Shown: positions 2,591 to 64,000 of the stretch, in pieces
How positions within the stretch are numbered: the stretch's first letter is position 1
Layout: every line of letters begins with the position of its first letter
Program-made: the position numbers and the translations under genes
The notes under the pieces: generated by a model
What the model saw: only the letters and a program-made list of their open reading frames with translations
Told to the model about the DNA's origin: nothing
The model's database searches: none
From: Nemertoderma westbladi
Lineage: Eukaryota; Animalia; Xenacoelomorpha
Assembly: GCA_032718475.1 (NCBI GenBank)
Contig: JAUCBJ010000700.1
Location: 1 to 64,000, forward strand
Direction of reading: 5' to 3'
Length of the DNA: 64,000 nt

Positions 2591-2738
2591 TATAGATGTT
2601 TCTTTTGCAAAGAAATCCCCCTTGCCAATCTTAAGTTTGTGTATTCCTTAACAAAGTACAAATTTTTAAGTGCTTAAAATTATTAATTATTAATGTACCT
2701 TTCCAAAACCCTTATTTCTTTATGAACTGCGGCAGGGG

Positions 2739-4013
2739 TGTAAAAGCTTCTGTGGGATATAACTGGCCCTTTTGCTTCGCAACCCAGTTTCCCCCCAGGC
2801 GCTGGAATACTCTAAAAAGGTTCTCTAACTGTATATATATTCCCCTCGCCCGCAAGGTACCGTTACAGGTGTTTTAACGGACATAAAAGTTATTCTGCTA
2901 TATACGTGTTTTAGCGGACATGGTAAGGCAAAAAACCTGCAATGCGACAAATACCTTTCATAGCTTAGCCGTGATGATTCATATTACGACATCTAACAGC
3001 TGGTTGCTGACATGGAAACAGCCATTGGACGCATGGTTCTTTGTTTGGCTTGAACCAATCAGAGCGATTTTTCCTGTCGACGTGTAGCTTTTCGGTCGAT
3101 CATAAGGAGTGTGTTCAGTCTTACTGTTTTTTGGTGATACTCTGTTGTTATTGCTGTCTAGGCCAGGAACAACGGCTCTAGAGTCAATGCGTTTCATACT
3201 TTTAGAAGAAACATTAGTAGGCTTAAATTATAGAGCGTATGACTGTTATCAAATCTTATCAATTCAATGCAATTCTTAACAAACCATTCATAATTCAATA
3301 CTTTGTTGTTATTACTGTTCAACATACATTATTATACTGCTATTTACTGTTGTGTTCGGTTGAATATTATTTGGAGAACATATATAAAGAACCCAAATTT
3401 CCCAATTTTCTTGATACACTACAGGTTAGAGAGACGGGTTATATATAGCGATTGCGACTTATATTGTTGTGGTTTGTAGTGAATTTAATGCTATTTGATA
3501 AGCACTACATTGGTCCGTTGCTGTTCTCTTTATATATGATAAAATTCATTGACGATCGGCAAATTAGCGTGCAGTATTGTGTGTTACCGGTAGTGTGCAT
3601 GATTGTGATTGATAACTAAGCATTTCCTAAAGAATGCGCCTCATACGTGAATCTTAAGCCTTACCGACTTACCGTTGTGATTAGTATAAGTCATATCTCT
3701 GTTTACTTAGATAGAGCGCCACGTCCTAACTGTTAATATTTCCCGAAAGTAAATAATATTAGTCAGAAATTAATTATTAACGATCAATCGAATAATACAA
3801 TACAGTAAGCTTCACTGCAATAATAATCTAAGCCCTCAGAATCCAGTCTTCCGGGATTATCCAGCGGGTGAATGGACGCGCACTAGGCTGGCTTCTGCTA
3901 ATGTTGTGTTTATTGGTATTAAATATTTGTCATCTTCTAAAGTATATTTATAAACCAAAAGACATATAAATTTTGGCAGGTTAAACTGCTAAAGGTCTTC
4001 AAAAGCGCGTACA
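2739..4013 (+). repeat. 5' LTR of element A (1275 bp)
   Basis: Direct repeat of 22167-23446. By eye the copies differ by one 5-bp indel and two substitutions. A CCAAT box at ~3053 is conserved in the B LTR. Confidence 0.97.
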
Positions 4014-4024
4014 ATAACAGTCAT
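4014..4024 (+). promoter_or_regulatory. Non-tRNA primer-binding site (putative self-priming PBS) of element A
   Basis: ATAACAGTCAT directly follows the LTR and has no TGG start. It is the exact reverse complement of ATGACTGTTAT at 3239-3249 in the LTR. Confidence 0.75.
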
Positions 4025-4079
4025 TGACTTTATTGCAGTAAGCAATAAAGTTGAAAGTACCGGTCAACCGGTAAACCTG

Positions 4080-4206
4080 AACCGGTACTTCTGTAGGTCA
4101 GTAGGCCCAACTGCCAGAACCGGTACTGCTGTGGGTCCGTAGGTCCAACTGTCAGAACCGGTACTTCTGTAGGTCTGTAGGCCCAACTGTACTAACCGGT
4201 ACTTCC
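4080..4206 (+). repeat. 38-bp tandem repeat (~3.3 copies) in the leader of A
   Basis: AACCGGTACT(T/G)CTGT.GGTC.GTAGG.CCAACTG units start at 4080, 4118, 4156 and 4194. Confidence 0.85.
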
Positions 4207-4374
4207 AGTATAAGTACATTAGTATTATTCGATTTTGATTATTGCATACCGGTAGGCTGTTTAAGAGATTAGGGACTGTACACCCCTTGTTTCTTTTGGA
4301 GCTTACTTATTTCTGTCAGTTTTATTTACATGTAAGTTAATATTGAGCTGAAGACGTGTAAGTCTGCTCAGATT

Positions 4375-4965
4375 GTTCAGATAATTGTAGGCCGGACTGT
4401 TGTCAGATCGGCCATATCTACTGTTGGGTTTGGAGAGATTACGGCGTGTGTGGAGTTTGTCCGATAGAGTGCCAGTTAGTAAGTTGGGGCAGCCATTGCT
4501 GTAAGGTCAATCCCCTCTTAAAGAATAAGTCGTACTACCGTGTTAGAATGCATACTAACTAACAATTTTGGAATCTGCACATACTGTAGTTTATTTAGGC
4601 TTGACAGTATTCTGCCAGCGTTTTGGCTTGTGTTTGTTTGTGTGGTCTGTTCAGATACTGTAATAGTTATTACTCAGATATTTTGTAGGCTGGATTGTTG
4701 TCTAGCTATTATTAGGTCTGAAGAGATTGCTGCTTGTGTAGAGTTTGTCTGATAAAGTGCCAGTTAGTAAGTTGGGGCAGTCATAACTGTAAGGTCAATC
4801 CCCTCTTAAAGAATAAGTCGTACTACCGTGTTAGAACGCATACTAACTAACCGTTTTGGAATCTGCACATACAGTAGTTTATTTAGGCTTGGTGGTAGTC
4901 TGCCAGCGTTTTGGTTTGTATTAGTTTGAGTATTCTGTACGGGTAGCGTAATATTTATTATTCAG
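4375..4965 (+). repeat. ~288-bp tandem duplication in the leader of A
   Basis: GTAAGGTCAATCCCCTCTTAAAGAATAAGTCG at 4501 and 4789. A homologous ~290-bp repeat occurs about 3 times in B. Confidence 0.85.
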
Positions 4966-6263
4966 AGTTTATGCGATTATTCGCAACATTCATGTCCCCA
5001 AGTTTATTCCTACAGTAATTGTGTTTGTTACACATACCGTTATAGTTAAATTAACCCCGGTACTACACGGGCTGCTTGGCGTAGGACAAGACTGGTGACT
5101 TTGTGCTCTGGTCACTCCAGCAGATGCCGTGGTTCTTTTAACTGTTCAAGTATATTTAACTATTGATTATTGTTGTACCAGTGCTTGTACCTAATTTAGG
5201 GTTTAGTGTACAGTGCTTTCCGAAGTAATTAGTGTGTAGGCAGTATATTTGTGTTGTAAAGTGGTTAATAGGCACGCTGGATCTGGTAGTCCGCGGTAAT
5301 TAACTTCTAGGTAGGAACACTCCGTGATACATAACGTAGTACCTATAGCGATACGGTTATAGGTCGTCAGGCGGTGGTATTTTCGTATCTGGACAACGCA
5401 GTGTATTTACTACTACTTATTATTTTCAAATACCGTAGTACCCTGTCCGTTGTAATAACCAGAATTCTAACCCTTTGTTAGACTGGTTTGTAGACTTCCT
5501 GTAAAATTACCCTAAAAATTTCGTACGTAATATTTTTGTTGTGTTTAATTAGAGATTTAATCTCATCCGTATCGTAAGTAATTTGTAGTATTAAGTAACT
5601 TAGGTAAATTAGAATAATCTGTTTTAGTGTCCCATAAGTAGCACTCCACTGAGAGCGCACAGCTTCTGTGTAGTGACTTCCCCCAGAAATAATAACATTT
5701 ATTTCAAATATTGACAAAAAAAAACCCATTTTAAACGGGTATATATCTATTATAAATCAACTCAAACGATTTATAAATAGTAGGCCTGCCATACAACAAC
5801 TAGGTCTCAATATCAGTTGGACTACTGCTTAAATAACGGTAATAAAGTAAGTTAAAGTAACCAAGTAACCCTAAAATATTCAGAAATTCAATTATTCTAA
5901 AATAATTGACATACTGGTATTTACCATAGGCTTATTATATTTATTTCTATAAATTTGAGCTGAAATCATACCGGTATTCTGTAATTAATTCTAGTTCATA
6001 ATTATACTTATATATACTATAAGTGTAAGCTGTATACCGGTATTCACAATAGGCCTATTATATATTTATATATATTTGTGCTAAAATTATATACCGGTAC
6101 TCTGTGACAAAACTAGTTTAAAATACTTATATATATTATAAGTGCATACCGGTATTCTAATATACTGCAATAAATTACCGGTACTAGGCCAACGGTCATA
6201 CTGAATTACTAGACTTGCTTTAACTGTAACTATAGCAGTAAGTATTCAACTGTATAGCTAAAC

Positions 6264-9200
6264 ATGTCTGACACTCAGCAAAACCTGTCAGACAGTCTAA
6301 TCGATACAACCATCTGTGACACAGATAGGAGTGTGGAGCGATTAAGAAAGGAGTTCAGCTCACCTCCTACTGAAAGAAAGGTCATCCCTCCAGTAGTAGT
6401 ATCAGACCCTAAGTTAATCCAACACCGTAGGTCTATCATCGGCACTCGGGCCCAAGTCAAACGGAACCAGGAAGCAGCTGCCCTACAGCAGCAACAGCCT
6501 AGTCAAGAAACTTGTTCCCAGCGATCAGATAGCTCCAGTAGTTCGGATACTGTCGAACTGACCCCCGAACGCAGATTGCAGATGACGGCAAAAGCCTACT
6601 CGGACCCCCTTCTCACCCTTCCTGCCGCAGTGCTAACAACTATATTGATTGCTGTGGAGGAACATCAAGCAGATTGGGCGAGAAATAAGCGAGCGACCCA
6701 AGATGATTATGCGGGATACGCCAAGGAAGAATTGATGTATATTGTCGAGTCACAATGGAACTTTCCCAGACCCGGACTCCCGTTAGATCTGTCCGAGGCT
6801 ACTTGGGAAGATATACACAGGATGGGAGTGGCTAAAGATACGATGGATCCAGCTGTTTGAAAGAGGTCGGCAGCAGGATATGTGCAGGGATTCTTCGGCT
6901 CCTTAGAGAGATTAGAAGAACAACTGTTTCGACAACCCCAAGGACCTCAAGAGCAGGAAGAACTGCTATATCAAGTACGCGAAAGAACCCTACGCATTCG
7001 ACTAATCCTATCAGCTTTTGAGGAAACTTCCAAAAGGAGACAGGACACGTCACTGCAGGTTGCTGTCAAAACTTGGTTCCAGCGGGTAGGTCTCCAAATC
7101 CAAGAAACAGACCAGTGGAAATCCCAGCTGTCTGAGAGACTAACTTATGAAGAACCAACAGATGCCACCCTTTCTCAAGTGGAAGGCGAAGAGACCTCAG
7201 AGAAACCACGAACGAGAGACGCCATAGACATTTATCTGTCCGACTATCAGCGATTCCTAGGAGACGAAGAGTTGAGGAGACGGCTGTCTGGACTTTCCCC
7301 TAATAGTGAAGGAACCCAGCGTGTGTTAGATTCAATCGATGCTGAAATGTTAGCTGCTAACCAAGCAGAATTTGATGAAAAACTCCGCCTCGCTAGAGTC
7401 CAAGAAGAAAAGGTAAAGAAAAGACGGATAGAGGAACAAAAGGCGGCGGCTACGGCAGAAGCAGAAGCAGAAAGAAAAGCAGCGGCGGCAGAAGTAGAAG
7501 CAGAAAGAAAGGCAGCGGCGGCAGAAGTAGAAGCAGAAAGAATAGCAGCAAGGGCAGCAGCGGCAGAAGCAGAAGCAAAAAGAAAGGCAGCGGCGGCAGA
7601 AGCAAAGGCGGAAAGGGCAGTGGCAGAAGCAGAACGGAGAGCGTCTGAGCAGACTACCCAACTGGAGTTGGAAAATCTGCAAGAGACGCAAGACAATATA
7701 AATAAACAGTTAACTGCTAGTCACATGCAGATGATGAGAAAATCTACTCCCAAACGCCAGGGATACACATCATCGGAAGAAAGTGATACCACCGATCCTG
7801 AAGGCGGAGGAAATAGATCTCGTCTAAGCAGGCGTAGAAAAACATCTCATCGTCACAAATTGCCTGATTTGCCCCCAGCTGTTAAAAGACAGCTAGCTAG
7901 CACAGACTTAGGTAGTACGGAACCCATAGACCAAACTGTTCAGGTCAAAAGACTCCCTACAATAGTTGATGAACCTGAAATAATTAGGCCTGTCGTTCCC
8001 AAAGTCACTTCTGTGTTAGAGACCCCTGTACTTCCAGAGCTTCACTCTAAATTCCCTTTACACAGTACTACACTGCCTGTACCCGGTAGAACAGTCCATG
8101 AGAATATCCATGTCCTGGAAGCTGAGAGAGAAATCAAAGATTTGTCTCCCGTCGTCCCACGTCAGCCCGCTACAATGTTGGCGACTCCCGCTTCGGCGGT
8201 CGAGTGGGTAGAGGAGGGACGGCGGGGGATGAATCTCCTGCTCGGACAGATGCAGGAGACTGTCCACCAGCTTAAGGGAACAGTAAGGGAAAGTAGGGCC
8301 GAATTGCAAGAAGTGCAGCAAAGTATCGCGCTAGAACGCGACAAATTAGTCAATATACAAAAGGGCATACCAATACCCCCTGTAACATTGTGTCAACCTG
8401 TTAGGTCTGAAGTATTACATGCGCAAGGTGTGGAGCCTACACGCATCTATACTGCTAGTGAAGTTGAAACTCCTATAGCAAACCCTATTAAGGGTAATTA
8501 TAGACCTGTTATTAATGATATTCCCTATAGACCTGATAATGATCCGAGAAATTTATATACCGATAATTCGATATTAAATAACACGATGGCCCAAGAAAGC
8601 TTTACGCGGCAGATGGCTAGAACAGAAGCCCGCCAAGCGGTCAAAGTGGGAGAGATCGTCAAATTCAATGGAGATGAGATGAAATGGTTACCTTTCAATG
8701 AATATTACAAAGACAGTATACAGAACTCTGTACTATCTAATGGAGAGAAACTTAGGTTCCTCATCAAGTGCTTGGAAGGACCTCCCAAGTTAATGGCGTT
8801 AAAGTTTATTGGACATCCAGAAGGATTAAGACAAGTATGGGATACATTAAACATCAGGTATGGTAACAAGGATAACATAGCTAAGTATTTGTATGCAAAA
8901 TTAGTAGCCCCCCGACACTTCCTTAGTAGCGGGATTATAGAGTTTTCCGATGAAATTCAGGAGATCTGTAGACAATTGGACTGGTTAGGTAAGTCTCATG
9001 AATATCAGAGTTCAATGGTTATTGGAGCCGTAGTCTCTACTTTACCAAAGGGTGGAGTATGTACCCGCTGGGACAAGAAAGTGTTGTACATGAATGAACA
9101 ACAACGACGAAGTCCTACCATGGCTGATCTCATGTCCTTCTTAGATGGTGAGGTAAAACTACAACTCATCAAGCAGTCCAGAGAGAAAACATCGGAAAAT

Positions 9201-14405: not shown

Positions 14406-14469
14406 CCGAGGGGCACTTGTATAATAACTAATAATCACGAACCCCGTCCTCTTATAATATATAACTCTG

Positions 14470-14532
14470 TAGTAGTCAGTAGCAGTAGTAGTAATAGTAG
14501 TAGTAGTAGTAGTATAAGTAGTAAGTAATAGT
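14470..14532 (+). repeat. (AGT)n microsatellite
   Basis: Imperfect TAGTAGTAG run just 3' of pol. Confidence 0.7.
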
Positions 14533-15669
14533 AAAGGAGATCGGTTTAAACCAAAGTGATAAAGTAACATTATTATATAACATAATCATATAGACAAAGT
14601 AGAATAAGATACAGATTCATAATTATTTTATCAAACTCATGTACTACTTACATCAATGTGCCAATTGTAATAATAATTAAACATATTATTCCGATTAATC
14701 TGCGTTCGGCCCTATAACATATTATACTGAAGTGTTTTATATCAATATATCCATGCGAGTAAACAAGAAGTGAAGTAAATGTTTATTATTATAGTTTTAG
14801 AAATTGAATGATATACCCAAGATAGGGAAATAGATAATATACAAGAAATTGCCATTTGATTAGATATATCAAAGCGGCGTCTTTAGTATAATACCGTAAT
14901 AGTATCAATTAACTCTGTTATACAATGTAAATATACTAAATCTATTTATAAATATATTATGAGCCCTACATTGTATATTTCTCCTACAGGTAGACAATGT
15001 AGTATGTTAAAACTTGATATAATTTGGTATAATGTATAACATATTACAAATAAGACTGAGGCAGCTAAACTATATTGCAAAGAAATCAAATATCCTAAAG
15101 TAATATAGTAGACCCTCCCTCCACCCTATAAATAGTGTTCACCATCTACCCCACCCACCGCCCTTATTACTTCATAATAATGAAAGATAGTACTGGCGCT
15201 CCGGTCACTCCGTTCCCTCCGCTGGTGGGGTTAAGTTGTAGGTTTTCACACTATGCAAAATCCGAGCACAGAGTTAGAAGCGCTTTGGATAGGCGAACAT
15301 TTCTTGCAGTGAAAGTATTTCCATACCTATTATAGTTTTCGAGATAGTCAGACATGAGTAGCAAAAATTTAAATTTTTTTCGGTAAAGTCTGATTTCACC
15401 GGTACCTGTCATCTGAAATATGGATTGTGATATATCGTTAGATGCGGGTCCACTAACTGTACATTCACATATTTTCAAGGAAAAAATTCGATCAAGGGTT
15501 TTCGAAATATTTTCGAATTACCGGAAGCAGACTTTGGACGACCATATCTCCGGTACCGGTTGGCCTATTGAGTCGAAATTTTTTTTAATCTACTTAGAAC
15601 ACTCCAGTGAATGTTTTTTAATTTGACAGTTTTGCTCCAAAATGCTCAGAAGTAATTTCGAAAAAAATG

Positions 15670-16720
15670 ATAATTTCGCGATCATGATCTTTTGACCCCC
15701 TAGAATTGAACTTTTTTATGGTCAAATTTTGGCTACCCCCCCTAATTCGAGGGTGAGGAATCTTTTTGTAATGTTAAGTTTTTTCATACGGTGAACTCAC
15801 AGGACTTGGTCTTCGAAATAAAACCGAAAACACGATCTTTACTGATCATGGCCTGATCAAATCGCTTTTTGAAAATTTCGAAATGCTTAAAAGTTGCCCC
15901 TTCTTAATAGAAGTCGATTAGTAAAAAAAAAATCGGGGGTCTCAAACAAAGTTTTCGAGAAAATTGGAAAAAACCGAAAAATATGATCTTTAATGATCAG
16001 GTATCAGATCTCGAGAACCGGTTGACCGATCGAGCCAATTTTTTTTTAATCAACTCAGAATAGACCATTGAACATTTCTTACAATAAATGTTTATTAAAA
16101 AAATGTTTAGATTCGATTTTAAGTACACTGATCTTTTCGCGATCATGATCTTGAGTTTTGACCCACTAGACTTGAACTTTTTTATGCCCAAATTTTGGCT
16201 ACCCCCCATAATTCGAGGGTGAGGAATCTTTTTGTGATGTTAAGTTTTTCCATACGGTGAACTCCCAGGACTTGGTCTTCGAAATAAAACCAAAAACACG
16301 ATCTTTTCTGATCGCGGCCTGATCAAATCGCTTTTTGAAAATTTCGAAATGCTTAAAAGTTGCCCCTTCACCATAGAAGTCGATTCGTAAAAAAAAAATC
16401 GGGGGTCTCAAACAAAGTTTTCGAGAAAATTGGAAAAAACCGAAAAATATGATCTTTAATGATCAGGTATCAGATCTCGAGAACCGGTTGTCCGATTGAG
16501 CCAATTTTTTTTTTAATCGACTCAAGGCGGTGTTCTGAACGTTTCCTACAGTAATTGTTTATATCCAAAATGCTTAGTTACGATTTTACGAAGTCCGATC
16601 TTTGCGCGATCATGATCTTGGGTTTTGACCAGTAAGAATTCACTTTTTTTAAAATCTTTTAACGGGAATCATGACTAATGTGGGGTCGCTGAATCTTTTT
16701 GTAATGTTAAGTTTTTCGAT
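15670..16720. repeat. ~465-bp tandem repeat (2.2 copies) inside a segment of A that is absent from B
   Basis: GCGATCATGATCTT at 15678, 16139 and 16606. The long blocks 15700-16050 and 16170-16520 are nearly identical. Confidence 0.85.
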
Positions 16721-18825
16721 TAGAGCAAGCCTTGAGTGTCCGATTGCTGATCAAAACTGATCTTTGCTGATCATGGTCAAGATCATGATCTGATCGCTCC
16801 AAAAAAAAGCTCTTGAAGGTAAACCCATATGCTGCCTGCAGTTTGGCGCCGGTCCCAAGTCCGTAGCATTAGCGGTTCTGGACTTATCTCCATAGCAACG
16901 AGGTTGCTAGGGAGGCTGACTTTTTGACTCAAATTGGCCCTAGCCGGAGAACCGTAGACTTTTGAAACGTTATGTATATGGGGAAAAGTCTTCTAGATAG
17001 ATTTTGGGGGGGGGTCTAGGAACATCCTATTGGTGGTTTTCGCTTAGTTGCTGAGATCCTCTCGTCCCAACAATTCCAGGATTCTATAAAGGCATTCTGC
17101 TGGACTAGTTCCGTGGCCGGAATAGTGTTCGGTGTTCTGCGAACAGAGAACCTAATCGGTTTAGGGCCCTGACAGTCTAGGGACTCCCTAACGTGATACG
17201 TCTGGAGTGGGTGTATGACTATATTGTTTTATCTATTTTGTTATATTTTTATATGTGAACTTTATTATGTACTTTATTATAATCGTTTTTATTCAATTTT
17301 ATTTAGTAGAATGTTATTTTAGTGATTATTTAGTAGATTAGTGCAATATATTAGAGTTTATTACGTACGTAATTACTTATAATATATATTTAGTGCGACG
17401 GCGAGAAAATAATTATTTTTTCTCTTTCCTTACTGTCCGTATCATATTGTAAATACGTGACTACAGTAAGATGAAATGTCCGTACTTCTTAAAGTACAAT
17501 AAAGCCACTACTATATTCAAGTATTATTGGTAGGCAGAGTATTAGGAATGCAAAGTTCAGATCCTCGTGTCTCGGCTAAGCCAAGCTCTGGGTAGACCTT
17601 GGAAACGACTTGCCTCTTCACACTGACATTGCTTTGTGCGATATTGCTCTTCTACCTTATATTAAATAATACATATAGTAGCGTGATGTCCATATAACAG
17701 TAGCGTAAAACGCAAATAAATCTGTTAAACCTTTTGACCATCTGTAATTCTAGTCGATTAAGATATCGCGGCACCCACCGATATACTTGAAAGACAAATT
17801 CTAGAATCAGTGGTTAACGTCCCCAGACAAGTTCTGGAATAAATCGGTGCCCATCTTAAATATTAATTTAATATTTATTAAAATCTGTAAAATTCAGATC
17901 CTTTAAAATTTCTAGTCAATTAAGATATCGCAGCACTTACCGATACTCTTAAAAGACAATTTTATAGAATTAAAGATCCTATGTCCCCAGACCTGCTCTG
18001 GAATCAAATTGTGTCAATTTTAACATCAAATAATAAAATTCACGGGAATAAATTTAAATTCATATTTTTAAATGAATTTCATAAATTGTCATTTTGTACA
18101 ATTTATAACATTCCCAAAATTCCATTAATTAATAGATCATGGGAGCGGAGATTCATCCTATTGAGTGTACTAGAGTGCGAGAATCTCCAACATATAGTCA
18201 ATAGCCGATAAAATTAACAAAATCATGCATAAAGAGGATATTGACAATTAAAGAATTATTATTAAATAGCATCCCAGATCTGTATGCATGAGAATTACCC
18301 TAATTCTACCGCTAGCATTCCATAATGTCACCATAGCAACACCCAAGCTAGAATTAGAAGCAAGTTAAAAGAACAATAGAAAGCTTGTTCCATTGCCTAG
18401 CATAGAGAATACATAGCACACTGTTAGTATCCAAGGATACACAGTAATAAAGTGACATTCTGGTAGGCACTGACTAACGGACAAATGGCCTGTGTGTGTG
18501 CAGTTTGTTGACAGTTGTGTGGAATTGGTGCGTTTATAGGTGAATGTTACTGCTAAAGTATGTTTACAGTAGCTAGTCGCAATTGTAAAAATAGCCCAAC
18601 TCTCCTATAGAAAGAACCTAAGTGGATCCAAGCCTTTGGGACGGACAGTGGAGTGACTTGTGCCGGTTATCGTTGTCGTGCTGTTGCTACATGTTGGCGT
18701 AAACACCGCGACGACGGTACATCGGCGCTGAGAATCCCACTGTCCGGGGGCAAAGATAAATAGGCAGCGACGCCCGCTCGCCTAAATACAAACTTATTTG
18801 ATATTAATAAACTCAGATAGCAGAT

Positions 18826-19476
18826 ATGACGGAGTTGATAGAAGATGATCTTGGTATTAGGGAGCGATATACTCTACCTTTACAAGCGTTTGTGGATAGC
18901 TTAATACGCGGTGAAGCCGATCCAACCATTACGGAGGACGATGGTCGTTATATCGAACCGCCGATGTCCCAAGAGCAACTTGCGCGTGAATTGGACTATC
19001 GAAAATTCACCACTCGCTCTACGAATCGTAATGGTACGTATATGGACTTCCTAACGACCGGCCATCCTATCGATTTACATGATACGGACGATATAGATAC
19101 AGAAAGGGAAATGGTTCTATTTAAATATCATACCCAGCGGAGTCGTAACGATAAACCGAGAATAGATCACGAAAATTCTATTCGTAATAGACTGGAAAGA
19201 GAAAACGTTGAAGAACCGGATAAACGCATCGACTTCAACGAATACTTATAATTTTTGAGAGAAACCTATCTCAACGTCGCTAGTCAGCAGAACTTAGAGA
19301 CTCGATATCCTCAAGGTATCCATCACGACCCTGTGGTAGAACTCAAACGGCTCTATTTCACTATGATGTATCTTACCGCCGATCGTCCACTACCTGTTAT
19401 CCCGGATAGTTTTGAACGTGGAAGAAAACTTGTAAGGACAAATAGAGGAGAACACTGGAGAAGAGACATGGGTTAA
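18826..19476 (+). pseudogene. N-terminal part of the accessory 3' ORF of element A (unknown function), interrupted by TAA at 19249-19251
   Basis: ORFs 18826-19251 and 19255-19476 are in frame. The homolog in B (43416 downward) reads YLEFLRET where A reads YL*FLRET, and amino-acid identity to B is high. Confidence 0.7.
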
Positions 19477-20312
19477 TGGGTTAATGTCTAGGGTCCATGA
19501 TGTGAATAGTTTTTCCCCGGGGCACGGGTGTTCGCGGGCGGTCTCCTTCGGGAGGCTGTAATTTCTCTTCCTTCATCGTTTTCCTGTAATTATTGTGATC
19601 AGTATCACGATTAAAGGGCAAGAATGAATGATGATGTGACGGAAACATGTCCATTGTGGTATCTTATAGATACTACCATATATCCTCCCTCCTCTTTACT
19701 CCCTTTATCCCTCTATACATCGCTATCGAAAATATAGCATACTTCGTCCCACCTTCTCTTCCCAATGTGCTCGGAGCTTTGGGAGACGATCGACCAATCA
19801 TTGCCGTATCGTGGTATGGATCATACCGCCTCCTAATAAATCCCCACCCCTTACTGTTTATTTGTATGCTCATATTGGTGTCCGCACCTCTCGTCCATGT
19901 CACATTCCACATTCTGTTGATATTTATGATATCAACTTCCACCCTCGCGTTGTTGATTAGAAAATCAACCACCAATAATTTCCTCAAGTCCGCAACCGTG
20001 ATACAAACAAGGACTGAAAGGACACGAGGATAGTTTGTGAACAACTGGTACCATTATGTGTCATAAATCTGGTTGTTCACCTCCCTCAATGATTGGAGAA
20101 ATAAATCTTCTGTAGAACAACTGAGACAAACATATCCTTGAACTGGTATTTACCTCCTCGCTAGGGATAAATTCATTTAAAGATAGTCTTCGAATGATTG
20201 AATCCTCCTACTGAGATCGTATTCTGAATCTTTCTGAATACGACATAGGCCTTCCCCTGCTTTCTACCACTACCATCAATGGCGGAAAACATATTAGTCA
20301 TCCTACAGGAAC

Positions 20313-22088
20313 ATGGAGAACATTCCATACCCTTTCGTTGATACTCAGCTGATTGCTCCCTGGGCAGAAGGTCGAGGTTTCTTCCGCACTATGTATGCTA
20401 ATACGTCTAGCAACATTACCAAGGTGCAACGAACTTCCATCGGACATCTTGCCTTTCAGGAATACGGATGGAATTTCAAAGTCGGAAATCCCATTAACTA
20501 TCAACAGGTATACGGAGACCATTATTCTCGATTATACTTTGATGGATCATTGACCGCACCTGGCGCCGTGTATAGCTTCATGAGTGTTCCACTCCGTCCC
20601 TCCTTAGCTATATACACGATCTTTGAAAACACCGCACTTGCCGGTTGGCTAGCCGATGTGTGCAGTCGTACTATACGCGCCCATCCATTAATACTTGGGA
20701 CCAAACTCGCTAAGCTAGATGAACATAATAAATTCACCCGTTTCGAATGTTTCTGGCGATTTTTAACCCCGTTTCGCAACGTGGATAGCCAATTTAAAGA
20801 CCGCGCTTTGACCAAACTCAGCCTAAGAAATTCAGCTGCAGAGAAGTTGGATAGCGCTGGATTCGCCATTTTCCAAGAGATTTGTATATCGAACTTGCAC
20901 TCCTCAGTTATACAAAGACCTCGAATCCCCACAGGTTATTCTGTCGTGGAAATTCAGACGATAGGTCCACCTGAAGAGACAGACACGCCCACTTCAGCTA
21001 TGCACTTGGAAGACGAACCAATATGTCTAGAATCTGAAGAGATTCAGCCTATCGCGCCCCGGACCAGCGACAACGATTACATCATAGAATGGTATCAAGG
21101 CCCACAGTGTCTCACTGCGTACGATTATCGCCATGCCAACTATGTTTCTAGGCAACGTTGTCGGTTATGCGCATCGAGAGACCACGATACGCCCATGGAC
21201 ACCAACGTCCGCTGTTCCTATTTCCAAGAACAACCGACTATGGAAATTTATTGCGCATATTGCAGACTCAATAACTTGCATATCTTTGCATTTTGCCCTC
21301 AATTTATGACTCAATGTCACCATTGTCAACTAAAGGGACATGCTAGTTTCAACTGCCCTTTTAATCACGATTTGGAAAGCGTAGATGAAATGATCACACT
21401 GCGTTACATCAGAGCTTGGGAAGCGAACGCTGATTTACATTGTGATTCGCGCCATCGCTATTATCCCGGACGCGCTTACGAAGGAGTTTATACGTTCCAT
21501 CCTTATCTATTCGCTTCGGTTGAACAGAAATCACACATATCAAGTTACGAGCTACTGAAGCGCGTCGGAGAATGTATTTCAACCAAATTCGTACGCAAAT
21601 TTCTCAGGAGTGTTAATCCTAGCGACCTTCATTCCTATAACTTAATCAATTATATCCGTCAGGATCCGAACTATGGAGACTTGTTTGTTAACTCACACCC
21701 TGAGTTACAGGAAGTATATCGACGGCCTTACGAATACCGAGCCCGCGAACGCGAGTTGGAAAGGACCATTAAACCCCGGAAGTTTCTAACTGCCTATGGT
21801 CCACCCACGGCCCTCGTTCAGACCACTCGTAAAGGACCCGTAAGAGCGGCTGTCTTGAAACGAGCTCTCAAAGCCGTTAGACCCCTCTCACCTGACGTTG
21901 ATGTCAATCAACCCGGTACTTCGACTGGCGGATACACCGACCATAATCCTACACCCTCTGATGCAATCATATTGCACCCTTCACCCAGGAGTTATAGCCC
22001 TCCTTGTAAAGTGGCTCGCCCCAAAGAGAAAAGGACTCTGGCTAGCTTTAAAAAACTGCGTAAACGCCGTCCGCGCAAGAAAGACTAA
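20313..22088 (+). CDS. 591-aa accessory protein of element A with CCHC zinc-knuckle-like motifs and a basic C-terminal NLS-like tail
   Basis: Long intact ORF ending 78 bp before the 3' LTR. Motifs CRLCASRDH, CAYCRLNNLHIFAFC and CHHCQLKGHASFNC; tail KKLRKRRPRKKD. The last ~45 codons are conserved in B (42056-42190). Confidence 0.8.
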   Translation: MENIPYPFVDTQLIAPWAEGRGFFRTMYANTSSNITKVQRTSIGHLAFQEYGWNFKVGNPINYQQVYGDHYSRLYFDGSLTAPGAVYSFMSVPLRPSLAIYTIFENTALAGWLADVCSRTIRAHPLILGTKLAKLDEHNKFTRFECFWRFLTPFRNVDSQFKDRALTKLSLRNSAAEKLDSAGFAIFQEICISNLHSSVIQRPRIPTGYSVVEIQTIGPPEETDTPTSAMHLEDEPICLESEEIQPIAPRTSDNDYIIEWYQGPQCLTAYDYRHANYVSRQRCRLCASRDHDTPMDTNVRCSYFQEQPTMEIYCAYCRLNNLHIFAFCPQFMTQCHHCQLKGHASFNCPFNHDLESVDEMITLRYIRAWEANADLHCDSRHRYYPGRAYEGVYTFHPYLFASVEQKSHISSYELLKRVGECISTKFVRKFLRSVNPSDLHSYNLINYIRQDPNYGDLFVNSHPELQEVYRRPYEYRARERELERTIKPRKFLTAYGPPTALVQTTRKGPVRAAVLKRALKAVRPLSPDVDVNQPGTSTGGYTDHNPTPSDAIILHPSPRSYSPPCKVARPKEKRTLASFKKLRKRRPRKKD

Positions 22089-22166
22089 CTGTTTAGAGTA
22101 TTTACATATATTAGAAACTGTGATTTTGTATATTTTATAGACTCAAATCCCATTTTCTGGGAGCGG

Positions 22167-23446
22167 TGTAAAAGCTTCTGTGGGATATAACTGGCCCTTT
22201 TGCTTCGCAACCCAGTTTCCCCCCAGGCGCTGGAATACTCTAAAAAGGTTCTCTAACTGTATATATATTCCCCTCGCCCGCAAGGTACCGTTACAGGTGT
22301 TTTAACGGACATAAAAGTTATTCTGCTATATACGTGTTTTAGCGGACATGGTAAGGCAAAAAACCTGCAATGCGACAAATACCTTTCATAGCTTAGCCGT
22401 GATGATTCATATTACGACATCTAACAGCTGGTTGCTGACATGGAAACAGCCATTGGACGCATGGTTCTTTGTTTGGCTTGAACCAATCAGAGCGATTTTT
22501 CCTGTCGACGTGTAGCTTTTCGGTCGATCATAAGGAGTGTGTTCAGTCTTACTGTTTTTTGGTGATACTCTGTTGTTATTGCTGTCTAGGCCAGGAACAA
22601 CGGCTCTAGAGTCAATGCGTTTCATACTTTTAGAAGAAACATTAGTAGGCTTAAATTATAGAGCGTATGACTGTTATCAAATCTTATCAATTCAATGCAA
22701 TTCTTAACAAACCATTCATAATTCAATACTTTGTTGTTATTACTGTTCAACATACATTATTATACTGCTATTTACTGTTGTGTTCGGTTGAATATTATTT
22801 GGAGAACATATATAAAGAACCCAAATTTCCCAATTTTCTTGATACACTACAGGTTAGAGAGACGGGTTATATATAGCGATTGCGACTTATATTGTTGTGG
22901 TTTGTAGTGAATTTAATGCTATTTGATAAGCACTACATTGGTCCGTTGCTGTTCTCTTTATATATGATAAAATTCATTGACGATCGGCAAATTAGCGTGC
23001 AGTATTGTGTGTTACCGGTAGTGTGCATGATTGTGATTGATAACTAAGCATTTCCTAAAGAATGCGCCTCATACGTGAATCTTAAGCCTTACCGACTTAC
23101 CGTTGTGATTAGTATAAGTCATATCTCTGTTTACTTAGATAGAGCGCCACGTCCTAAAGGAACTGTTAATATTTCCCGAAAGTAAATAATATTAGTCAGA
23201 AATTAATTATTAACGATCAATCGAATAATACAATACAGTAAGCTTCACTGCAATAATAATCTAAGCCCTCAGAATCCAGTCTCCCGGGATTATCCAGCGG
23301 GTGAATGGACGCGCACTAGGCTGGCTTCTGCTAATGTTGTGTTTATTGGTATTAAATATTTGTCATCTTCTAAAGTATATTTATAAACCAAAAGACATAT
23401 AAATTTTGGCAGGTTAAACTGCTAAGGGTCTTCAAAAGCGCGTACA
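22167..23446 (+). repeat. 3' LTR of element A (1280 bp)
   Basis: Direct repeat of 2739-4013, TGTAAAAG...CGTACA, followed by the TSD AGGGG. Confidence 0.97.
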
Positions 23447-25232: not shown

Positions 25233-26077
25233 CGTTTACATTCATTCACTTTAATTCAGATACAGTAATTTATTTCAATTTGGTTCCTCTGTCGCTCTGT
25301 CCTTGAATACCGACGCACACGACCAGATTTCCTACATGGGTAAAATTCCGATGCCCGTTTGCAATTTCTTAATAGATTGAATTATTATTAATTATATGCT
25401 GGTATGAAGTCATACTGTCCTATTTGGTCCCTGCAACTGCGTAATTGGACTACAACTCACTTCATAAATGGTTTAGCGGCTTTTAATGATTGCCTGTGAT
25501 CTTGAAATCAACTTTTAAACTTCATCCAAGCTGTAGTAGATACAATAGTAGGTATACAACAGTTGAATGGTACTATTTCGTAGATTGGCGCTTACCGGTT
25601 ATCAACACACCATATGATATTACAGACACAAACAGTATAACACGACCCTGCAGAAACAACTTATAAGAATTGCTTGCTTGTGTAAGCGGCAGCCGTACAT
25701 AGGCTTGTCAATTACAGTAAATAAGTTCGACCAATTAGGGGCTAAACAATTGTTGAGGACTTGCAAATATATTGCTGGTTGATGATATTGGAGCGTATCC
25801 TCTATATTGTTACGAGGAATGCCTAAATTTTCATATCGATCTATGTAAATATGTATGAATGTACTGTATGTATGTACAGAGAACGTTAAAAGGTTAACAC
25901 TCAAAAATGCATGTAGCCAAAAATTTTGTGTGCCCAGAGTCAGAGAATCATTTGGCCAATGATGAGTGAAGAAATATTGCATAAGTTTTGTGAAACAAAT
26001 ATAATTGCTTGGTAAATTATATTGTGTTAGAGTAGTAACTTGAGGCAGCGTTTTATTAATTTAATTATTTGTTTCAG

Positions 26078-26987
26078 GTATTCGATTGATTTTGTACCCA
26101 ATTATTGGACGTTATCTTCCATCCGTGGGTGTCAAGAGTTGTCTGACTTTAGGAGCGACATTCGGATCTGTCTGCACCGTCCTCTTCGGGATTCTTGAGT
26201 ACGCACCCAACGGGAAACTCTTCGTCCTCATGTGCTTCATTGTGAAAGTTTGCGAAGCCATTGGAATGAGCGTCTCATTCATTGTGACATTCACGGCAAC
26301 TGCGGCATTGTTCCGAAACCAACGAAAACTTGTCCTCGGTTTCGTACAGAACTCGCTAACCATGGGAGCAACCGTTTTCCCGGCGATTGGTGGTTTCCTT
26401 TACGAACTGGGAGGTTTTGCGCTTCCCTTTTTCGTCGTGGGCACAGCGATGTTATGCAATTCTATTGTACTAATGATAACAATGCCCTCCGTGCCACAGA
26501 CTCCGTTAACTAATTCGTTTTCAGTAATTGATGTGCTGAAAAACAAAGTGGGTTTGCTAGCATCCCTTATCCAACTGTACTACCTAATAATAATTGGATT
26601 TTTTGACTCGAGCCTAAGTTTGCATTTATACCGCACTTTCCAACTAAATCCTTCCACAATTGGACTGATTTTTCTCATTGCGCCATTCTTGGAAACTATA
26701 TTGGGTAGTTTGATATCGACTACCTTACATCGCTTCAATTTACATAACATAAACCCGTTATCAATAGGGTTGCTAGGGACTATTCTTGTGATCATTAGTC
26801 TGCAACTAATCGATCCAAACCAATTCATTGGGATTACCTCCACTGTGGAAATCGCAGTATGTGGAGTTGTAGTGTTTGGCTTTGCCGGTGCTCTTACATT
26901 TGTTCCATGTATTCAGGCGCAGATTAAGGTTGCAATTCAAATCCTTGGTTGGCCCAACACAATCGCGGCTCACGCAGCTATATCGAG
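26078..26987 (+). CDS. MFS transporter, SLC18B1-like, exon 2
   Basis: Acceptor TTTGTTTCAG| matches phase 1. Multi-TM sequence including PAIGGFLYELGGFALPFFVVG, typical of the SLC18 family. Donor AG|GTAAGT, phase 2. Confidence 0.88.
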
Positions 26988-27594
26988 GTAAGTTACACTG
27001 TAGTAACATTAGGGTCTTCCCATCACCACACAAGTCTCTACACAAAGTAACCACAACATTGGTAAATTACATAAACTTACAAACTTATAAAATTGCTACA
27101 TTTTACTCCAGCTGAGAGATTCATGCACAATTCATACGGGTTCCAGGAAAAAATGAAATTATAATACAGTTTTATTTAAAGTTCCTTATTGTTTCAGATA
27201 TTGGATATTGTGAGTGCAGAAGTGAGTTATATACATGTAGTAATTTAAACGTCAGATAGTGGCGCACATTGACCGCAAGGGAAATAAGGTCTCGTGTATT
27301 ATATTGGGTGTCAGAAAACACCGCCACTGTAACCTGCTCCTTTCCCACAATGTTTTAAATTAAAATAACTTTTCGAACCCACTAAACACACATTTGGTGT
27401 TTGCGGTCATTTTGCAACATTGACTCACTATTTAATAAATACATCATATTTGCATAGAATAGCAACAGGGTTTAAATGCGTTTAATAGTCAATGGCGCAA
27501 AATGACCGCATCCTCTATGATATCTAACCAACCTGGTACACAACAACACAAGTTGTTTGGCAAAAGTTTATAATTTTTCCAGTATCAGTCTTAT

Positions 27595-37070: not shown

Positions 37071-37089
37071 TATCCGGTTCGAAGGACCA
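37071..37089 (-). promoter_or_regulatory. tRNA primer-binding site of element C (tRNA-Tyr-like)
   Basis: Minus strand TGGTCCTTCGAACCGGATA directly follows the 5' LTR and is complementary to a tRNA-Tyr-type 3' end (...CCGG.TCGAAGGACCA). Confidence 0.85.
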
Positions 37090-40797: not shown

Positions 40798-41977
40798 TGT
40801 TCGCGCTTTCAGACCTTTAGCAGTTTAACCTGCCAAATTTAGATGTCTTCTAGATTATAAATCGACTTTAGCCTATGACGAGTATTTGATACACTACATT
40901 AGCCGAAGCCAGTCTATGCGCGACCATTCACCCGCTGGATATACCCGGGAGACTGGATTCGGAAGCTTTGACCTTATTGCGGTGTAGGCCTACTGTATTA
41001 TTCGACTGATTGTTAATATATAATCTCTGACAAATATTATTCACTTTCGGGAAATATTAACAGTTCCTTTAGGACGTGGCGCTCTAAATATGTAAACAGA
41101 GTTATGACTTACACTAGACACAACGGGATGGCTATTGATTCACGTATAAAGCGCATTCTTTAGGAGATGCTTTGTTATCAGTCACAATCATGCACACTAC
41201 CGCACAATGCTGCACACCGATCTGCCGACCTTCACTAATTTTAGTCACATATAAAGAGAACAGCAACCGACACATGTAGTGCCTATGAAATAGCATTAGA
41301 TTCACTCCAAAACCAATATAATGTAAGTCGCAATTGTTATATGTAACCGGTCTCTTACCTTCAGTATATCAAGAAGATTGGGGGTTTTATGATTATTTAT
41401 CGATATTATCCAAATATAATAATATTCCATCAACTGATATAATTAATAACCGACAGTAAATAGCAGTAAAAATGCGGTGTTTGTAGTTGACAATATGATT
41501 TGCATTGATATGCATGTGTTGAGTTGATATGGTTTGATAACAGTTATACGTTTCTATGACCAAAGCCTACTAATGTTTGGCTAAAGCCTGAAACACAGAA
41601 ATTCCAAAGCCGGTCTTCTGGCTGTGGACAAAATACACATACTGACTGAATTGCATGAGTTTCTGTATACAATCTCCAACACAGAGTGAAAACCGCTCTG
41701 ATTGGTCGACCGAACAAAGAACGAACAAAGAACAAAGAAAAGTTACACGTGGACACAGCTGATAGATGTCGTCATCGAGTTCCGATGTTTAGAGTATTTG
41801 GCTTATTGCGACATAAAATCGCTAGTTATGTCCGCTAAAGTACACATACAGAAGAAATGGCTTTTTATGTCCACTAAAACACCGGTACAGTAAGGAAACG
41901 GCTTTTTATGTCCGTTAAAACAACTACAGAGTACTTTGCGGGGAAAATAACCAGCTAATTCCGCAAAAGCCTTTACA
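40798..41977 (-). repeat. 3' LTR of element B
   Basis: Direct repeat of 57740-58919. Confidence 0.95.
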
Positions 41978-57009: not shown

Positions 57010-57728
57010 AACTAGTACTTTATCGGACATACACTCTACACACACCGCAATCTCTTCAGACCTAACAATAGCCAGACAACAATCCAGCCTACAAATTATC
57101 TAAATAAGAAATATTACGCTACCCATACAGACTACACATACAAAATACAGACCAAACGCTGGCAGACTACTATCAAGCCTAAACAAACTACAGTATATGC
57201 AGACTCCGAAATGGTTAGTTAGTATGCGTTCTAACCGAGTAGTACGACTTATTCTTTCGAGGGGATTTACCTCACAGCACTGGAAGCCCCTACGTTCCTA
57301 ACTAGTACTTTATCGGACATACACTCTACACACACTACAATCTCTTCAGACTTAACAACAGTCAGACAACAGTCCAGCCTACACATTATCTGTACAATCT
57401 GAGCAGGCTTACACGTCTTCTGCTCAATATTAGCCTACAAATAAATAAAACTGACAGAAATAAGTAAACCATACAAAGGAATAAGGGGTGATCAATCCCT
57501 AATCCCCTAACAGCCTACAATATACAATATATCACAATCGAAATAATACTGCTGTACCTGTACTGCTGTAAGTACCGGTTCGGGTGGTTAGGTAGTTAGG
57601 CCTACTGGGTACCGGTTGACCGGTACTTCAGCTTTATTGCCTACTGCAATACAGAAGCAATAACTGTTATTATTCTTACCAGAACAATAGACAACTATAT
57701 TTATTGCCTACACTGCAATCAGAAGTTC

Positions 57729-57739
57729 ATAACTGTTAT
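57729..57739 (-). promoter_or_regulatory. Non-tRNA primer-binding site (putative self-priming PBS) of element B
   Basis: Element-strand ATAACAGTTAT directly follows the 5' LTR and is the exact complement of ATAACTGTTAT in the LTR (58480-58490). Confidence 0.75.
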
Positions 57740-58919
57740 TGTTCGCGCTTTCAGACCTTTAGCAGTTTAACCTGCCAAATTTAGGTGTCTTCTAGATTAT
57801 AAATCGACTTTAGCCTATGACGAGTATTTGATACACTACATTAGCCGAAGCCAGTCTATGCGCGACCATTCACCCGCTGGATATACCCGGGAGACTGGAT
57901 TCGGAAGCTTTGACCTTATTGCGGTGTAGGCCTACGGTATTATTCGATTGATTGTTAATATATAATCTCTGACAAATATTATTCACTTTCGGGAAATATT
58001 AACAGTTCCTTTAGGACGTGGCGCTCTAAATATGTAAACAGAGTTATGACTTACACTAGACACAACGGGATGGCTATTGATTCATGTATAAAGCGCATTC
58101 TTTAGGAGATGCTTTGTTATCTGTCACAATCATGCACACTACCGCACAATGCTACACACCGATCTGCCGACCTTCACTAATTTTAGTCACATATAAAGAG
58201 AACAGCAACCGACACATGTAGTGCCTATGAAATAGCATTAGATTCACTCCAAAACCAATATAATGTAAGTCGCAATTGTTATATTTAACCGGTCTCTTAC
58301 CTTCAGTATATCAAGAAGATTGGGGGTTTTATGATTATTTATCGATATTATCCAAATATAATAATATTCCATCAACTGATATAATTAATAACCGACAGTG
58401 AATAGCAGTAAAAATGCGGTGTTTGTAGTTGACAATATGATTTGCATTGATATGCAGTGTGTTGAGTTGATATGGTTTGATAACAGTTATACGTTTCTAT
58501 GACCAAAGCCTACTAATGTTTGGCTAAAGCCTGAAACACAGAAATTCCAAAGCCGGTCTTCTGGCTGTGGACAAAATACACATACTGACTGAATTGCATG
58601 AGTTTCTGTATACAATCTCCAACACAGTGAAAACCGCTCTGATTGGTCGACCGAACAAAGAACGAACAAAGAACAAAGAAAAGTTACACGTGGACACAGC
58701 TGATAGATGTCGTCATCGGAGTTCCGATGTTTAGAGTATTTGGCTTATTGCGACATAAAATCGCTAGTTATGTCCGCTAAAGTACACATACAGAAAAAAT
58801 GGCTTTTTATGTCCACTAAAACACCGGTACAGTAAGGAAACGGCTTTTTATGTCCGTTAAAACAACTACAGAGTACTTTGCGGGGAAAATAACCAGCTAA
58901 TTCCGCAAAAGCCTTTACA
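57740..58919 (-). repeat. 5' LTR of element B
   Basis: Direct repeat of 40798-41977, with blocks of similarity to the A LTR. Confidence 0.95.
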
Positions 58920-61654: not shown

Positions 61655-62328
61655 TTAAGATAAAAAAAAATAATAAATGAATTGTTGTGAGGTGAGTGAT
61701 AAGGTAAGATAAAAAAAACCATCAACAGCTGACTGTAATTACTGTAGGAGAGGACTTACCCAAGGGAGGGAAATTTAAAAGTAGTGCAGTAGCAGCCACT
61801 ACAACTAACGACAGAACGGTTCTGCTGCTCTGTCAGTCTGTCCGCGTTCGCGGCCAGACGATGTACAACATGCTGACATGTCGGCCACAGAACAATGTTC
61901 CGGACGTTTCAGGGCCGATCGGCAACCCCGTAGGCACACCAGCACACAGCAGTGTGTTCATTTTTCTTTGTTTATTCCACATCCACACACTCCGAGCGGT
62001 TATCAGCTACTGTAGTTATAGCAGGACCATTGAACGACTGGTCTGGTACAGTACTACAGTACGTACCGTACACCCAGTACAGATGGCCCACTACTTACTT
62101 TCATTTTACGGATGTATACCAGTGTAAAGGAAGACCTACCCTACAAACCGCTGACAGCGACAGGCAGATGGCCGTGTGCTACGGTATGCCTAATATAGAC
62201 ATACCGCCAGCACCAGTACCTATGTTTAATGCCCAATTACTACTTTAAATATATTATCTTGTACCAGAGAGCAAAGTTAATTGTCTGGTTTATTTAACAA
62301 ACTTGTTAATATAATACTGTAATATGAC

Positions 62329-64000
62329 ATGAATAATTGGAAAAACATATTTTTTGAGGATTTTGAATTAGTCAGCCCGGGTATTACCACAGTAGATTCC
62401 CCTGTCACTCCACGGAAACCGCCCTCTTCCACACCACATAAACCCCGGGTTAATCCAATCATATGGAACCCGACGTCGGCCCAACAAACACGCAGTTACG
62501 ATTGGCCTAATTGGCTTCCGGATGTTGGAGATCTGTCCTGGTCCAGCCAATCACGGGAGGTATCTAGGGAAACAGGCAATGATGGCGATTTCCTGAGTAT
62601 TTATAGTACCGCGGAATCGCCGTCTTTTATTCCGGCAAGCGGAATAATCGAAGGTATTAACAACACGAGTATCACTCCACAAATTATTAATGATCGAACT
62701 CCCGCACAGTTGGAGAATCGACCATCTAAAAAGCGACCCTATTGGTCTCTTGAGGACAGTTTCGTAACTGGTTCGCAAGTTGCAAATGGCAAATCGAAAT
62801 CTAAATCAACAAAAATAGATGGAGACAGCCCCTTGCTAATTACCAGCACTTGGTCATCAACTCAAGACTCAGAACTATCGTCTGATATTGCCGATGAAAC
62901 TGTTGTCGACGTTAATTCTGCGGACAGCGAAGATATCGCGGTATCGTTCCAGGATAGCCCGTTCACCAGAGTCGCCCGTCTGTGGGACCAATTCGATGAA
63001 GGAAGAGATCTGGAGGAGGATGAGTCGGGAGACTATGAGATAAATATAGAGAACGAAGATGTTGAGGACGTCATAGGAGAGCTACGAGACGGTCGAATAG
63101 TCCGGCGTGGTTTACTGGGGTCCCAGCCCGTGGTACCGGTACCTCTCGTCTGCCACCAACCGACTCCCCTCACACAGCTGATAGAGTCCTTATCTAGCGA
63201 TGCCAACCACTCAGAATACGCCGATCAGACTCCGCAATCCGACGACGACGTTATAATCAGTCCGACTCCGACGCAAACCTCCACGAGTGGTCCGGTCGCC
63301 GACGGATCCGATATAATCATAAACTCGCCGGAAGGTGCCACCGTGATCCAGAGCGAGGGATCCCCGACCTTAGCCTATAGGGATCGCAGTCGGACCTCTA
63401 CGAAGAAAGCGAACCCGCTGGTTACGGGGGGACTGGCGGAACGGGCGAGACGACTGGAGCTGCGGAGTCGGAGTTCCGTGGCGTTCCGGTCGTTTCGTCC
63501 CGCGGACCCGGAACCGCCTCGACTCGTCGTCCTCACCGTTACGCGGTGCCACGTTGAGTGTGGCCTCGAGGTGGTCGAGTGTCGCCTACACTCCGGCGTC
63601 GTCTGCTGCCATGGCGACACCCCGGTATCTAGGGTCGCGCTGATGTTCCCTGTGGACGAATCGACTCCACTGCGGCTTCCCGAGGGCTCCCAACTAGCGG
63701 TCGACGAACCCTGGCAGGTTTTTCGACCGGAAGTTTCCGGGATTCCGGTTCTCCTCGCTCGGAACGTCCAGCTCATTAGTTCACCGTCGTTGCAACGCGT
63801 TCCCATAGTTACCATGGACTCCCCAGCCTTCATTGGTCCGCCTACGGGCTGGGAGACCCGCGCGTTACGCAGACTAATAGAACTCTACCCCAGCCACTAT
63901 GTCGCTAAAAAGATTGTGCGCCATCTATCGGCAACATCTAGTACCGCAGAATGCGATTCGACTACCAAAACTGTTCCAGAATTAAATAAAAAAACAAACA
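62329..64000 (+). CDS. SPIDR: SPIDR-like DNA repair scaffolding protein, 5' part (runs off the window)
   Basis: Hand translation gives a frame open from ATG 62329 to the window end (~557 codons). An acidic Ser-rich N-terminus is followed by GGLAERARRLELRSRSSVAF...CHVECGLEVVEC...AVDEPWQVF...IPVLL, which resembles the DUF4502 block of SPIDR as I recall it (GGLAERLNGLQNRERSAISLW...PPWQKL...PVIL). Confidence 0.72.
   Translation, partial: MNNWKNIFFEDFELVSPGITTVDSPVTPRKPPSSTPHKPRVNPIIWNPTSAQQTRSYDWPNWLPDVGDLSWSSQSREVSRETGNDGDFLSIYSTAESPSFIPASGIIEGINNTSITPQIINDRTPAQLENRPSKKRPYWSLEDSFVTGSQVANGKSKSKSTKIDGDSPLLITSTWSSTQDSELSSDIADETVVDVNSADSEDIAVSFQDSPFTRVARLWDQFDEGRDLEEDESGDYEINIENEDVEDVIGELRDGRIVRRGLLGSQPVVPVPLVCHQPTPLTQLIESLSSDANHSEYADQTPQSDDDVIISPTPTQTSTSGPVADGSDIIINSPEGATVIQSEGSPTLAYRDRSRTSTKKANPLVTGGLAERARRLELRSRSSVAFRSFRPADPEPPRLVVLTVTRCHVECGLEVVECRLHSGVVCCHGDTPVSRVALMFPVDESTPLRLPEGSQLAVDEPWQVFRPEVSGIPVLLARNVQLISSPSLQRVPIVTMDSPAFIGPPTGWETRALRRLIELYPSHYVAKKIVRHLSATSSTAECDSTTKTVPELNKKTN

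Follow-up and report, generated by a model that had tools for sequence, protein, structure and literature searches.

Putative Tf1-like self-priming of reverse transcription in two giant BEL/Pao retrotransposons and in their relatives

The 64,000-nt window (the whole stretch of DNA that was analysed) contains three BEL/Pao elements recognised with Pfam, here called A, B and C, of which A and B are young BEL/Pao retrotransposons that likely prime reverse transcription with an 11-mer of their own RNA, as Tf1 does; we put the probability of this reading at about 80%. It is based on the geometry of the match that this 11-mer makes with the primer-binding site (PBS), a matched change between A and B, the lack of a TGG start, the RT and RNase H motifs, and the different letters in which relatives carry the same pairing. 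The coordinates of the features are collected in Table 1.

Table 1. Positions of the annotated and predicted features of elements A, B and C in the window.
Feature	Positions	Strand	Remarks
A 5' LTR, TGT...ACA, 1275 nt	2739..4013	+	99.3% identity to 22167-23446
CCAAT box	3055..3059	+	conserved in B (58646)
TCAGTC, initiator-like motif, rival start	3115..3120	+	B: 58592
A putative self-primer 11-mer	3239..3249	+	exact complement of 4014-4024; LTR position 501
Stem-loop just upstream of LTR end, U5-IR-like	3971..3994	+	predicted; z -4.5 in A, -4.7 in B
A PBS, no TGG	4014..4024	+	first base follows the terminal CA of the LTR
Hairpin immediately 3' of PBS	4026..4052	+	predicted; z -5.5 in A; weak in B (-0.1, -1.3)
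A Gag-Pol frame, 2514 aa	6861..14405	+	PF03564, PF05380, PF17921, PF18701
A polypurine tract region	22159..22166	+	sequence preceding 3' LTR
A 3' LTR	22167..23446	+	same 11-mer present at 22667
C tRNA-Tyr-type PBS	37072..37089	-	TGG start; tRNA-Tyr match
B 3' LTR	40798..41977	-	LTR pair with TSD TTGTT
Second B PBS copy	57660..57670	-	short leader duplication, 69 nt downstream
B PBS	57729..57739	-	abuts LTR at offset 0
B 5' LTR, 1180 nt	57740..58919	-	98.9% identity to 40798-41977
B putative self-primer 11-mer	58480..58490	-	exact complement of 57729-57739; LTR position 430

Classification of the three elements

Element A occupies 2739-23446 (+; 20.7 kb, TSD AGGGG) and element B 58919-40798 on the minus strand (18.1 kb), both with the TG...CA LTRs and 5-bp target duplication of BEL/Pao elements. 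The Gag-Pol frame of A encodes, in this order, a Gag with three zinc knuckles (located by their motif at residues 879, 912 and 931), protease, RT (YMDD), RNase H and integrase; this Pao-type domain order, established from Pfam and motif order, places A in BEL/Pao (Belpaoviridae), of which the three-knuckle Gag is also a feature. A 200-codon frame and one stop lie upstream of the 2514-codon frame. The sequence motifs of RT and RNase H, including the RNase H acidic motifs, are intact in A, and the coding region of B is broken by a stop and frameshifts. The best database matches all contain PF05380; their identity in the RT region does not go beyond about 42-44%, and the named ones come from sea urchins, corals, molluscs and fish. 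Contigs placed on the window, 9,177 of them from one run, show high abundance and diversity of the A/B family in the host.

Element C (37534-30587, with two identical 445-nt LTRs) shares with A and B the superfamily, the domain order and a 5-bp TSD, but differs from them in carrying a TGG site for tRNA-Tyr and in its RT: over a piece of 216 residues A is 95% identical to B and 33% identical to C. Of the final 12 nt of the tRNA-Tyr listed in supplement 2 of PMC13524379, 11 are matched by the PBS of C, whose self-match to its own LTR is 5 nt only. When the ends of the C LTRs are set by the TSD TATAC (37090 and 30587, minus strand), they read CCAAA and not CA.

The 11-nt match and the signals around it

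The initial annotation had stated that A and B have no TGG-starting tRNA PBS, that C has one, and that the 11 nt after the 5' LTR of A and of B are the exact reverse complement of an 11-mer inside the same LTR; all of this is borne out at sequence level, the match at all four coordinates. The TGG start of tRNA-primed elements is absent from both PBSs, and both elements have at least 10 nt complementary to their own LTR at an offset within 0-5 nt, which, in the passages of PMC6317226 available to us (at least 10 nt complementary, starting 0-5 nt after the LTR), is how self-priming elements are recognised. The G-C pair of A that is an A-T pair in B, described as a compensatory change, is indeed found between LTR 11-mers that align with each other, and it is the one pair between A and B at which pairing was kept through matched changes. 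That the match measures exactly 11 nt in both holds for Watson-Crick pairing; a G-U pair makes it 12 in B. Since the 11-mer of B is near-palindromic, it is from A alone that a complement, as opposed to a repeat, is evident.

A complement to the PBS was found in 20 of 20,000 dinucleotide-shuffled LTRs for A and 24 of 20,000 for B (P about 0.001 each), rising to 43 and 72 if the PBS may start 0-3 nt later. A and B are 79% identical over 804 aligned sites, and at this identity the probability that all 11 pairs would survive independent drift is about 0.008. The match could have arisen by chance because the LTR is AT-rich, both elements having inherited it: the 11-mer is AT-rich and near-palindromic in B, and 11-nt complements to the LTR also occur inside the elements (10 among about 18,150 positions in A, 15 among about 15,750 in B). 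The joint probability of about 0.001 x 0.008 makes this very improbable, and the relatives described below bear on it further.

In the A/B family, a third PBS allele at position 8 (57732) accounts for 15,165 of 36,204 and 8,377 of 24,258 depth units in two DNA runs, i.e. 42% and 35% of the depth of the DNA-run contigs placed on B. Of 156 variant positions, the 40 listed have shares from roughly 35% upwards and do not include the mirror site, 58487; the mirror change is expected at a share of about 15-22%, below that level. The family comparison comprises two members readable at both sites and one change in all.

A U5-IR-like stem-loop close to the PBS is predicted in both A and B (Table 1), and a stem-loop of this kind was reportedly described for self-primed elements by Lin and Levin in 1998. 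The 11-mer and the PBS are separated by 764 nt in A and 740 nt in B, and the computed probability of this long-range helix runs from 0.0 to 1.0 as the ends of the folded window vary, A and B responding in opposite ways, so that folding speaks neither for nor against self-priming. An upstream extension of the helix was also tried in A/B and rejected, its -3.4 kcal/mol being no improvement on 75% of the cross pairs; Rfam gave no match in 2700-6300. The length of the loop and the window-dependent folding would suit another explanation, in which the helix is a real RNA structure involved in packaging, in dimer formation or in a translation switch that hides the PBS, the primer being something else, and retroviral leaders do use such RNA switches. 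We consider this unlikely, as in A, in B and in the relatives the end of the helix falls within 0-3 nt of the LTR end, where cDNA synthesis must start, and an alternative primer site is absent.

The initial annotation had transcription start with the 11-mer, at 3239 in A and 58490 in B, downstream of the conserved CCAAT box; an exact start at 3239 has, on the sequence signals, about even odds. A pyrimidine-purine step at -1/+1 in both elements, a conserved 16-nt block at about -32 to -17, an identity between A and B that climbs at about 3189 from 0.36-0.60 to 0.72-0.74 and a helix that does not extend upstream of the 11-mer in A/B all favour it; against it, TATA is absent at -30 and the relatives pair further upstream than the core. 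The distance from the CCAAT box down to the 11-mer is 184 nt in A and 156 nt in B, and a conserved TCAGTC, which from the promoter consensus we take to be an initiator-like motif, lies 60 nt (A) and 54 nt (B) below the box and about 100-120 nt upstream of the 11-mer; the CCAAT box would fit a start near 3117 better than one at 3239. Both candidate starts could be real, because transcription of Tf2 can begin at alternative sites, and from just one of them does the RNA contain the self-primer (PMC5341516, in the part available to us). Both the A and the B LTRs are without AATAAA, so the R/U5 boundary cannot be placed. Downstream of the primer there is a donor-like splice site, canonical in B (58300, minus strand) and weaker in A (3425, plus strand), which could yield a PBS-less mRNA or a shortened loop; no intron-less DNA copy of this possible U5 intron was seen among the joints listed.

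Self-matches and LTR introns in the relatives

Relatives were collected as 79 metagenome loci by profile search (from the best 80 of 541 confirmed matches in the 24 of 64 parts scanned), and direct repeats were present in 39 of them. The test set consists of the 11 relatives in which two copies fix the 3' end of the LTR; partial repeats were left out, as were L001, L050 and L062 (duplicates, one family) and L040 and L078 (end unclear). The LTR ends of L063 and L057 were placed manually, and the stretch searched in L008, L016 and L072 took in some pre-LTR sequence.

None of these 11 relatives has TGG at offsets 0-3. Eight of the 11 have a Watson-Crick self-match of 10-15 nt between PBS and LTR, seven across an intron (modelled with GTRAG donors and YAG acceptors, 71-164 nt long) and one contiguous (10 nt); a ninth has an 11-nt self-match if one G-U is allowed, and L057 and L063 have none under the strict rule. 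As a control, 1 of 112 unrelated LTR/PBS pairs reached 10 nt, and 2 of 112 with G-U, a difference by which, together with the joint probability given above, the chance reading of the A/B match is already largely refuted. Since L008, L058 and L072 have a core in common and fall in one clade, the eight strict matches amount to six different sets of letters. In the relatives, to which the initial annotation had proposed to extend the covariation test, the pairing is thus kept by eight of 11 in different letters, and its proposal of self-priming in BEL/Pao gains more support than A and B alone could give. The trait is not peculiar to the A/B family: the signature appears, from these sequences, to span the sampled BEL/Pao group, usually in an intron-split form.

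Unspliced self-matches are short in most relatives, but they lie directly after strong 3' splice sites. Canonical LTR introns whose removal creates a PBS-complementary primer were noted in L002, L008, L016, L023, L026 and L029, and primer-creating LTR introns also in L046, L054, L058, L069 and L072. A scan independent of LTR ends found matches in 9 of 28 loci against 1.6 expected (20 shuffles each), many of the 28 being without part of the LTR and the 9 including 2 doubtful cases and 2 that repeat families already counted. In 11 non-redundant relatives, moreover, a second helix lies beside the core, formed by the 16 nt that precede the core and the 16 nt that follow the PBS (mean -8.65 versus -5.73 kcal/mol, permutation p 1e-4; p 0.13-0.81 in five shifted windows). 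From this it is likely that transcripts of these relatives begin a few bases upstream of the perfect core.

Like the intron-split relatives (L002, L008, L016, L026, L054, L058 and L072), A and B have no TGG and an own-LTR complement that ends 0-3 nt from the LTR end. They differ in that the primer of the relatives is formed across a GTRAG...YAG intron and accompanied by the second helix, whereas that of A/B is contiguous and has no significant extension, in the loop, which measures 62-216 nt in the eight matching relatives, and in their size of 18-21 kb, two to three times that of the intron-split relatives. A splice from within the 11-mer of A/B to an AG close to the end of the LTR was also considered, and gave a 10-nt match; we rejected it because the donor is poor, the match is shorter than the unspliced one and the hairpin accounts for the acceptor-like letters.

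The PBS might instead be bound by a host RNA such as a tRNA half produced by cleavage in the anticodon loop, the LTR match then being secondary. The middle of the 11-mer presumably resembles the anticodon loop of Asn-tRNA, and one G could pair with either letter of the C/T change in the PBS. Half-tRNA priming is also known in copia lineages, according to the passages of PMC6317226 available to us. Such a primer would leave unexplained the matching change in the LTR and also the relatives, whose PBSs differ in sequence and yet are complementary, frequently over a splice junction, to the LTR of the element concerned; we regard it as improbable. Scans for tRNA genes found none in the 64-kb window or in 34 of the 79 relative loci. 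A TTCGAA core is common to the PBSs of one clade (L008, L058, L063 and L072) and to the tRNA-Tyr-type PBS of C; it may be left over from a tRNA site in their ancestry, or may be chance.

The RT phylogeny proposed in the initial annotation was obtained as a maximum-likelihood tree of 82 rows, rooted only on the very long branch of C. It places A/B on a long branch outside all 79 relative loci (support 97/95), so the evidence from the relatives carries over to A/B by inference. Contiguous and spliced primers are found in sister positions (L019 with L023, L021 near L029), a pattern suggestive of repeated loss or gain of the intron, in an order of events that the tree does not fix; the labels for spliced and contiguous primers do not cluster in this tree beyond shuffles. 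The A/B LTR motif was absent from the metagenome and viral contigs, and no relatives of A/B were found in the viral contigs.

Proposed mechanism and comparison with known systems

In Tf1, it is bases 1-11 that are paired to the PBS, and the RNase H cut falls between bases 11 and 12 (PMC7175516, in the part available to us). By analogy, transcription of A would begin at or upstream of 3239, and the 11-mer would fold back onto the PBS downstream, which the conserved hairpin at 3971-3994, joined in A by the one at 4026-4052, may help to keep open. The RNase H of the RT would then cleave after 3249 and free a 3' end, from which a minus-strand strong-stop DNA of about 760 nt would be made. The 3' LTR would template the 11-mer of the progeny LTRs and plus-strand synthesis would recopy the primer into the PBS; consistent with such copying, about half of the Tf1 cDNA retains a PBS copy at its 3' end (PMC11042837, likewise seen in part). 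Recopying would carry a change in the 11-mer into the PBS and produce a compensatory pair without two selected mutations, and because matched changes would arise in one round of replication, the change between A and B counts as a single event that priming directly predicts. An intron inside the primer of the relatives would by the same recopying escape being copied out. The loop of A/B, far longer than in the relatives, and the missing AATAAA fall outside this explanation.

With less confidence, we lean towards a wider picture in which a large and widespread animal branch of BEL/Pao has left tRNA priming, most of its members making their primer by removal of an intron from the first RNA bases, and A and B would be deeply divergent giants with a ready-made primer and a loop of about 750 nt.

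The arrangement in A/B resembles that of the Ty3/gypsy elements Tf1/Tf2 of Schizosaccharomyces pombe, Tj1 and the Tf1/sushi group, in all of which an 11-nt LTR segment is complementary to the LTR-adjacent PBS; Tf1/sushi elements and A/B also share the lack of a tRNA site and a stem-loop near the LTR end. The PBS of A/B even has the first five letters of that of Tf1, ATAAC (in the part of PMC11042837 available), which may be coincidence. Unlike Tf1/sushi, A/B have a BEL/Pao polyprotein, LTRs of 1.2-1.3 kb, a loop of 740-764 nt, and relatives that form their primer by splicing. A chromodomain, as in the polyprotein of Ty3/gypsy chromoviruses, had no Pfam match in A/B, and A and B are not members of the Tf1/sushi group. 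Self-priming is named for the Tf1/sushi, Tcn1 and copia TAR lineages in the passages of PMC6317226 available to us; for plant Tcn1 (gypsy) and TAR (copia; Houba, Osr-1), it was predicted by the same rule that A/B satisfy, in superfamilies and hosts different from theirs. The independent origin suggested in the initial annotation is plausible as an origin separate from that of Tf1, but it has a precedent, as independent self-priming had been proposed for copia TAR (same passages).

Our full-text literature searches returned no report of self-priming in BEL/Pao, and older papers or repeat and virus database entries may hold one. The main-text portions available of three BEL/Pao surveys (PMC554778, PMC3118150 and PMC6238403) have no passage on tRNA or priming, and those of PMC4600332, PMC6934838, PMC3601003 and PMC3286476 nothing further on BEL/Pao.

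With A and B, BEL/Pao gains a lineage on a long branch whose primer is free of introns and whose loop is long, a simple test case beside the intron-split relatives. How an LTR element obtains the primer of its reverse transcription is one of its basic traits, and BEL/Pao elements are abundant in animals. If self-priming holds, BEL/Pao would be the third superfamily with it, tRNA would have been abandoned within all three LTR superfamilies, and, on the wider picture above, host splicing would be tied to the start of reverse transcription. Host control based on tRNA fragments would then not reach self-priming BEL/Pao elements, and annotation pipelines that depend on the PBS would miss or mis-trim them.

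The length of A and B, very large for BEL/Pao, is due to about 6 kb after the integrase and to a 2.2-kb leader. In A, the leader (4025-6270) contains 290-nt tandem repeats, and the region following the integrase (14406-20297) is mostly non-coding with 466-nt repeats and partly kept in B (17176-19265 versus 45071-42975, 88%). An extra frame of 596 codons (20298-22088, plus strand) precedes the 3' LTR of A; it is not env-like, and has one clear CCHC knuckle, two further knuckle-like Cys/His clusters and a basic C-terminal tail. It had no homologs at E 0.001, its Atlas leads were CCHC proteins only, with scores of at most 0.83, and it is recognisable in B for its last 40 codons only. The window also contains two host-like frames divergent from database proteins, an MFS transporter fragment (26065-26991, plus strand; Pfam MFS_1) and a frame with a weak DUF4502 match (62323-63999, plus strand).
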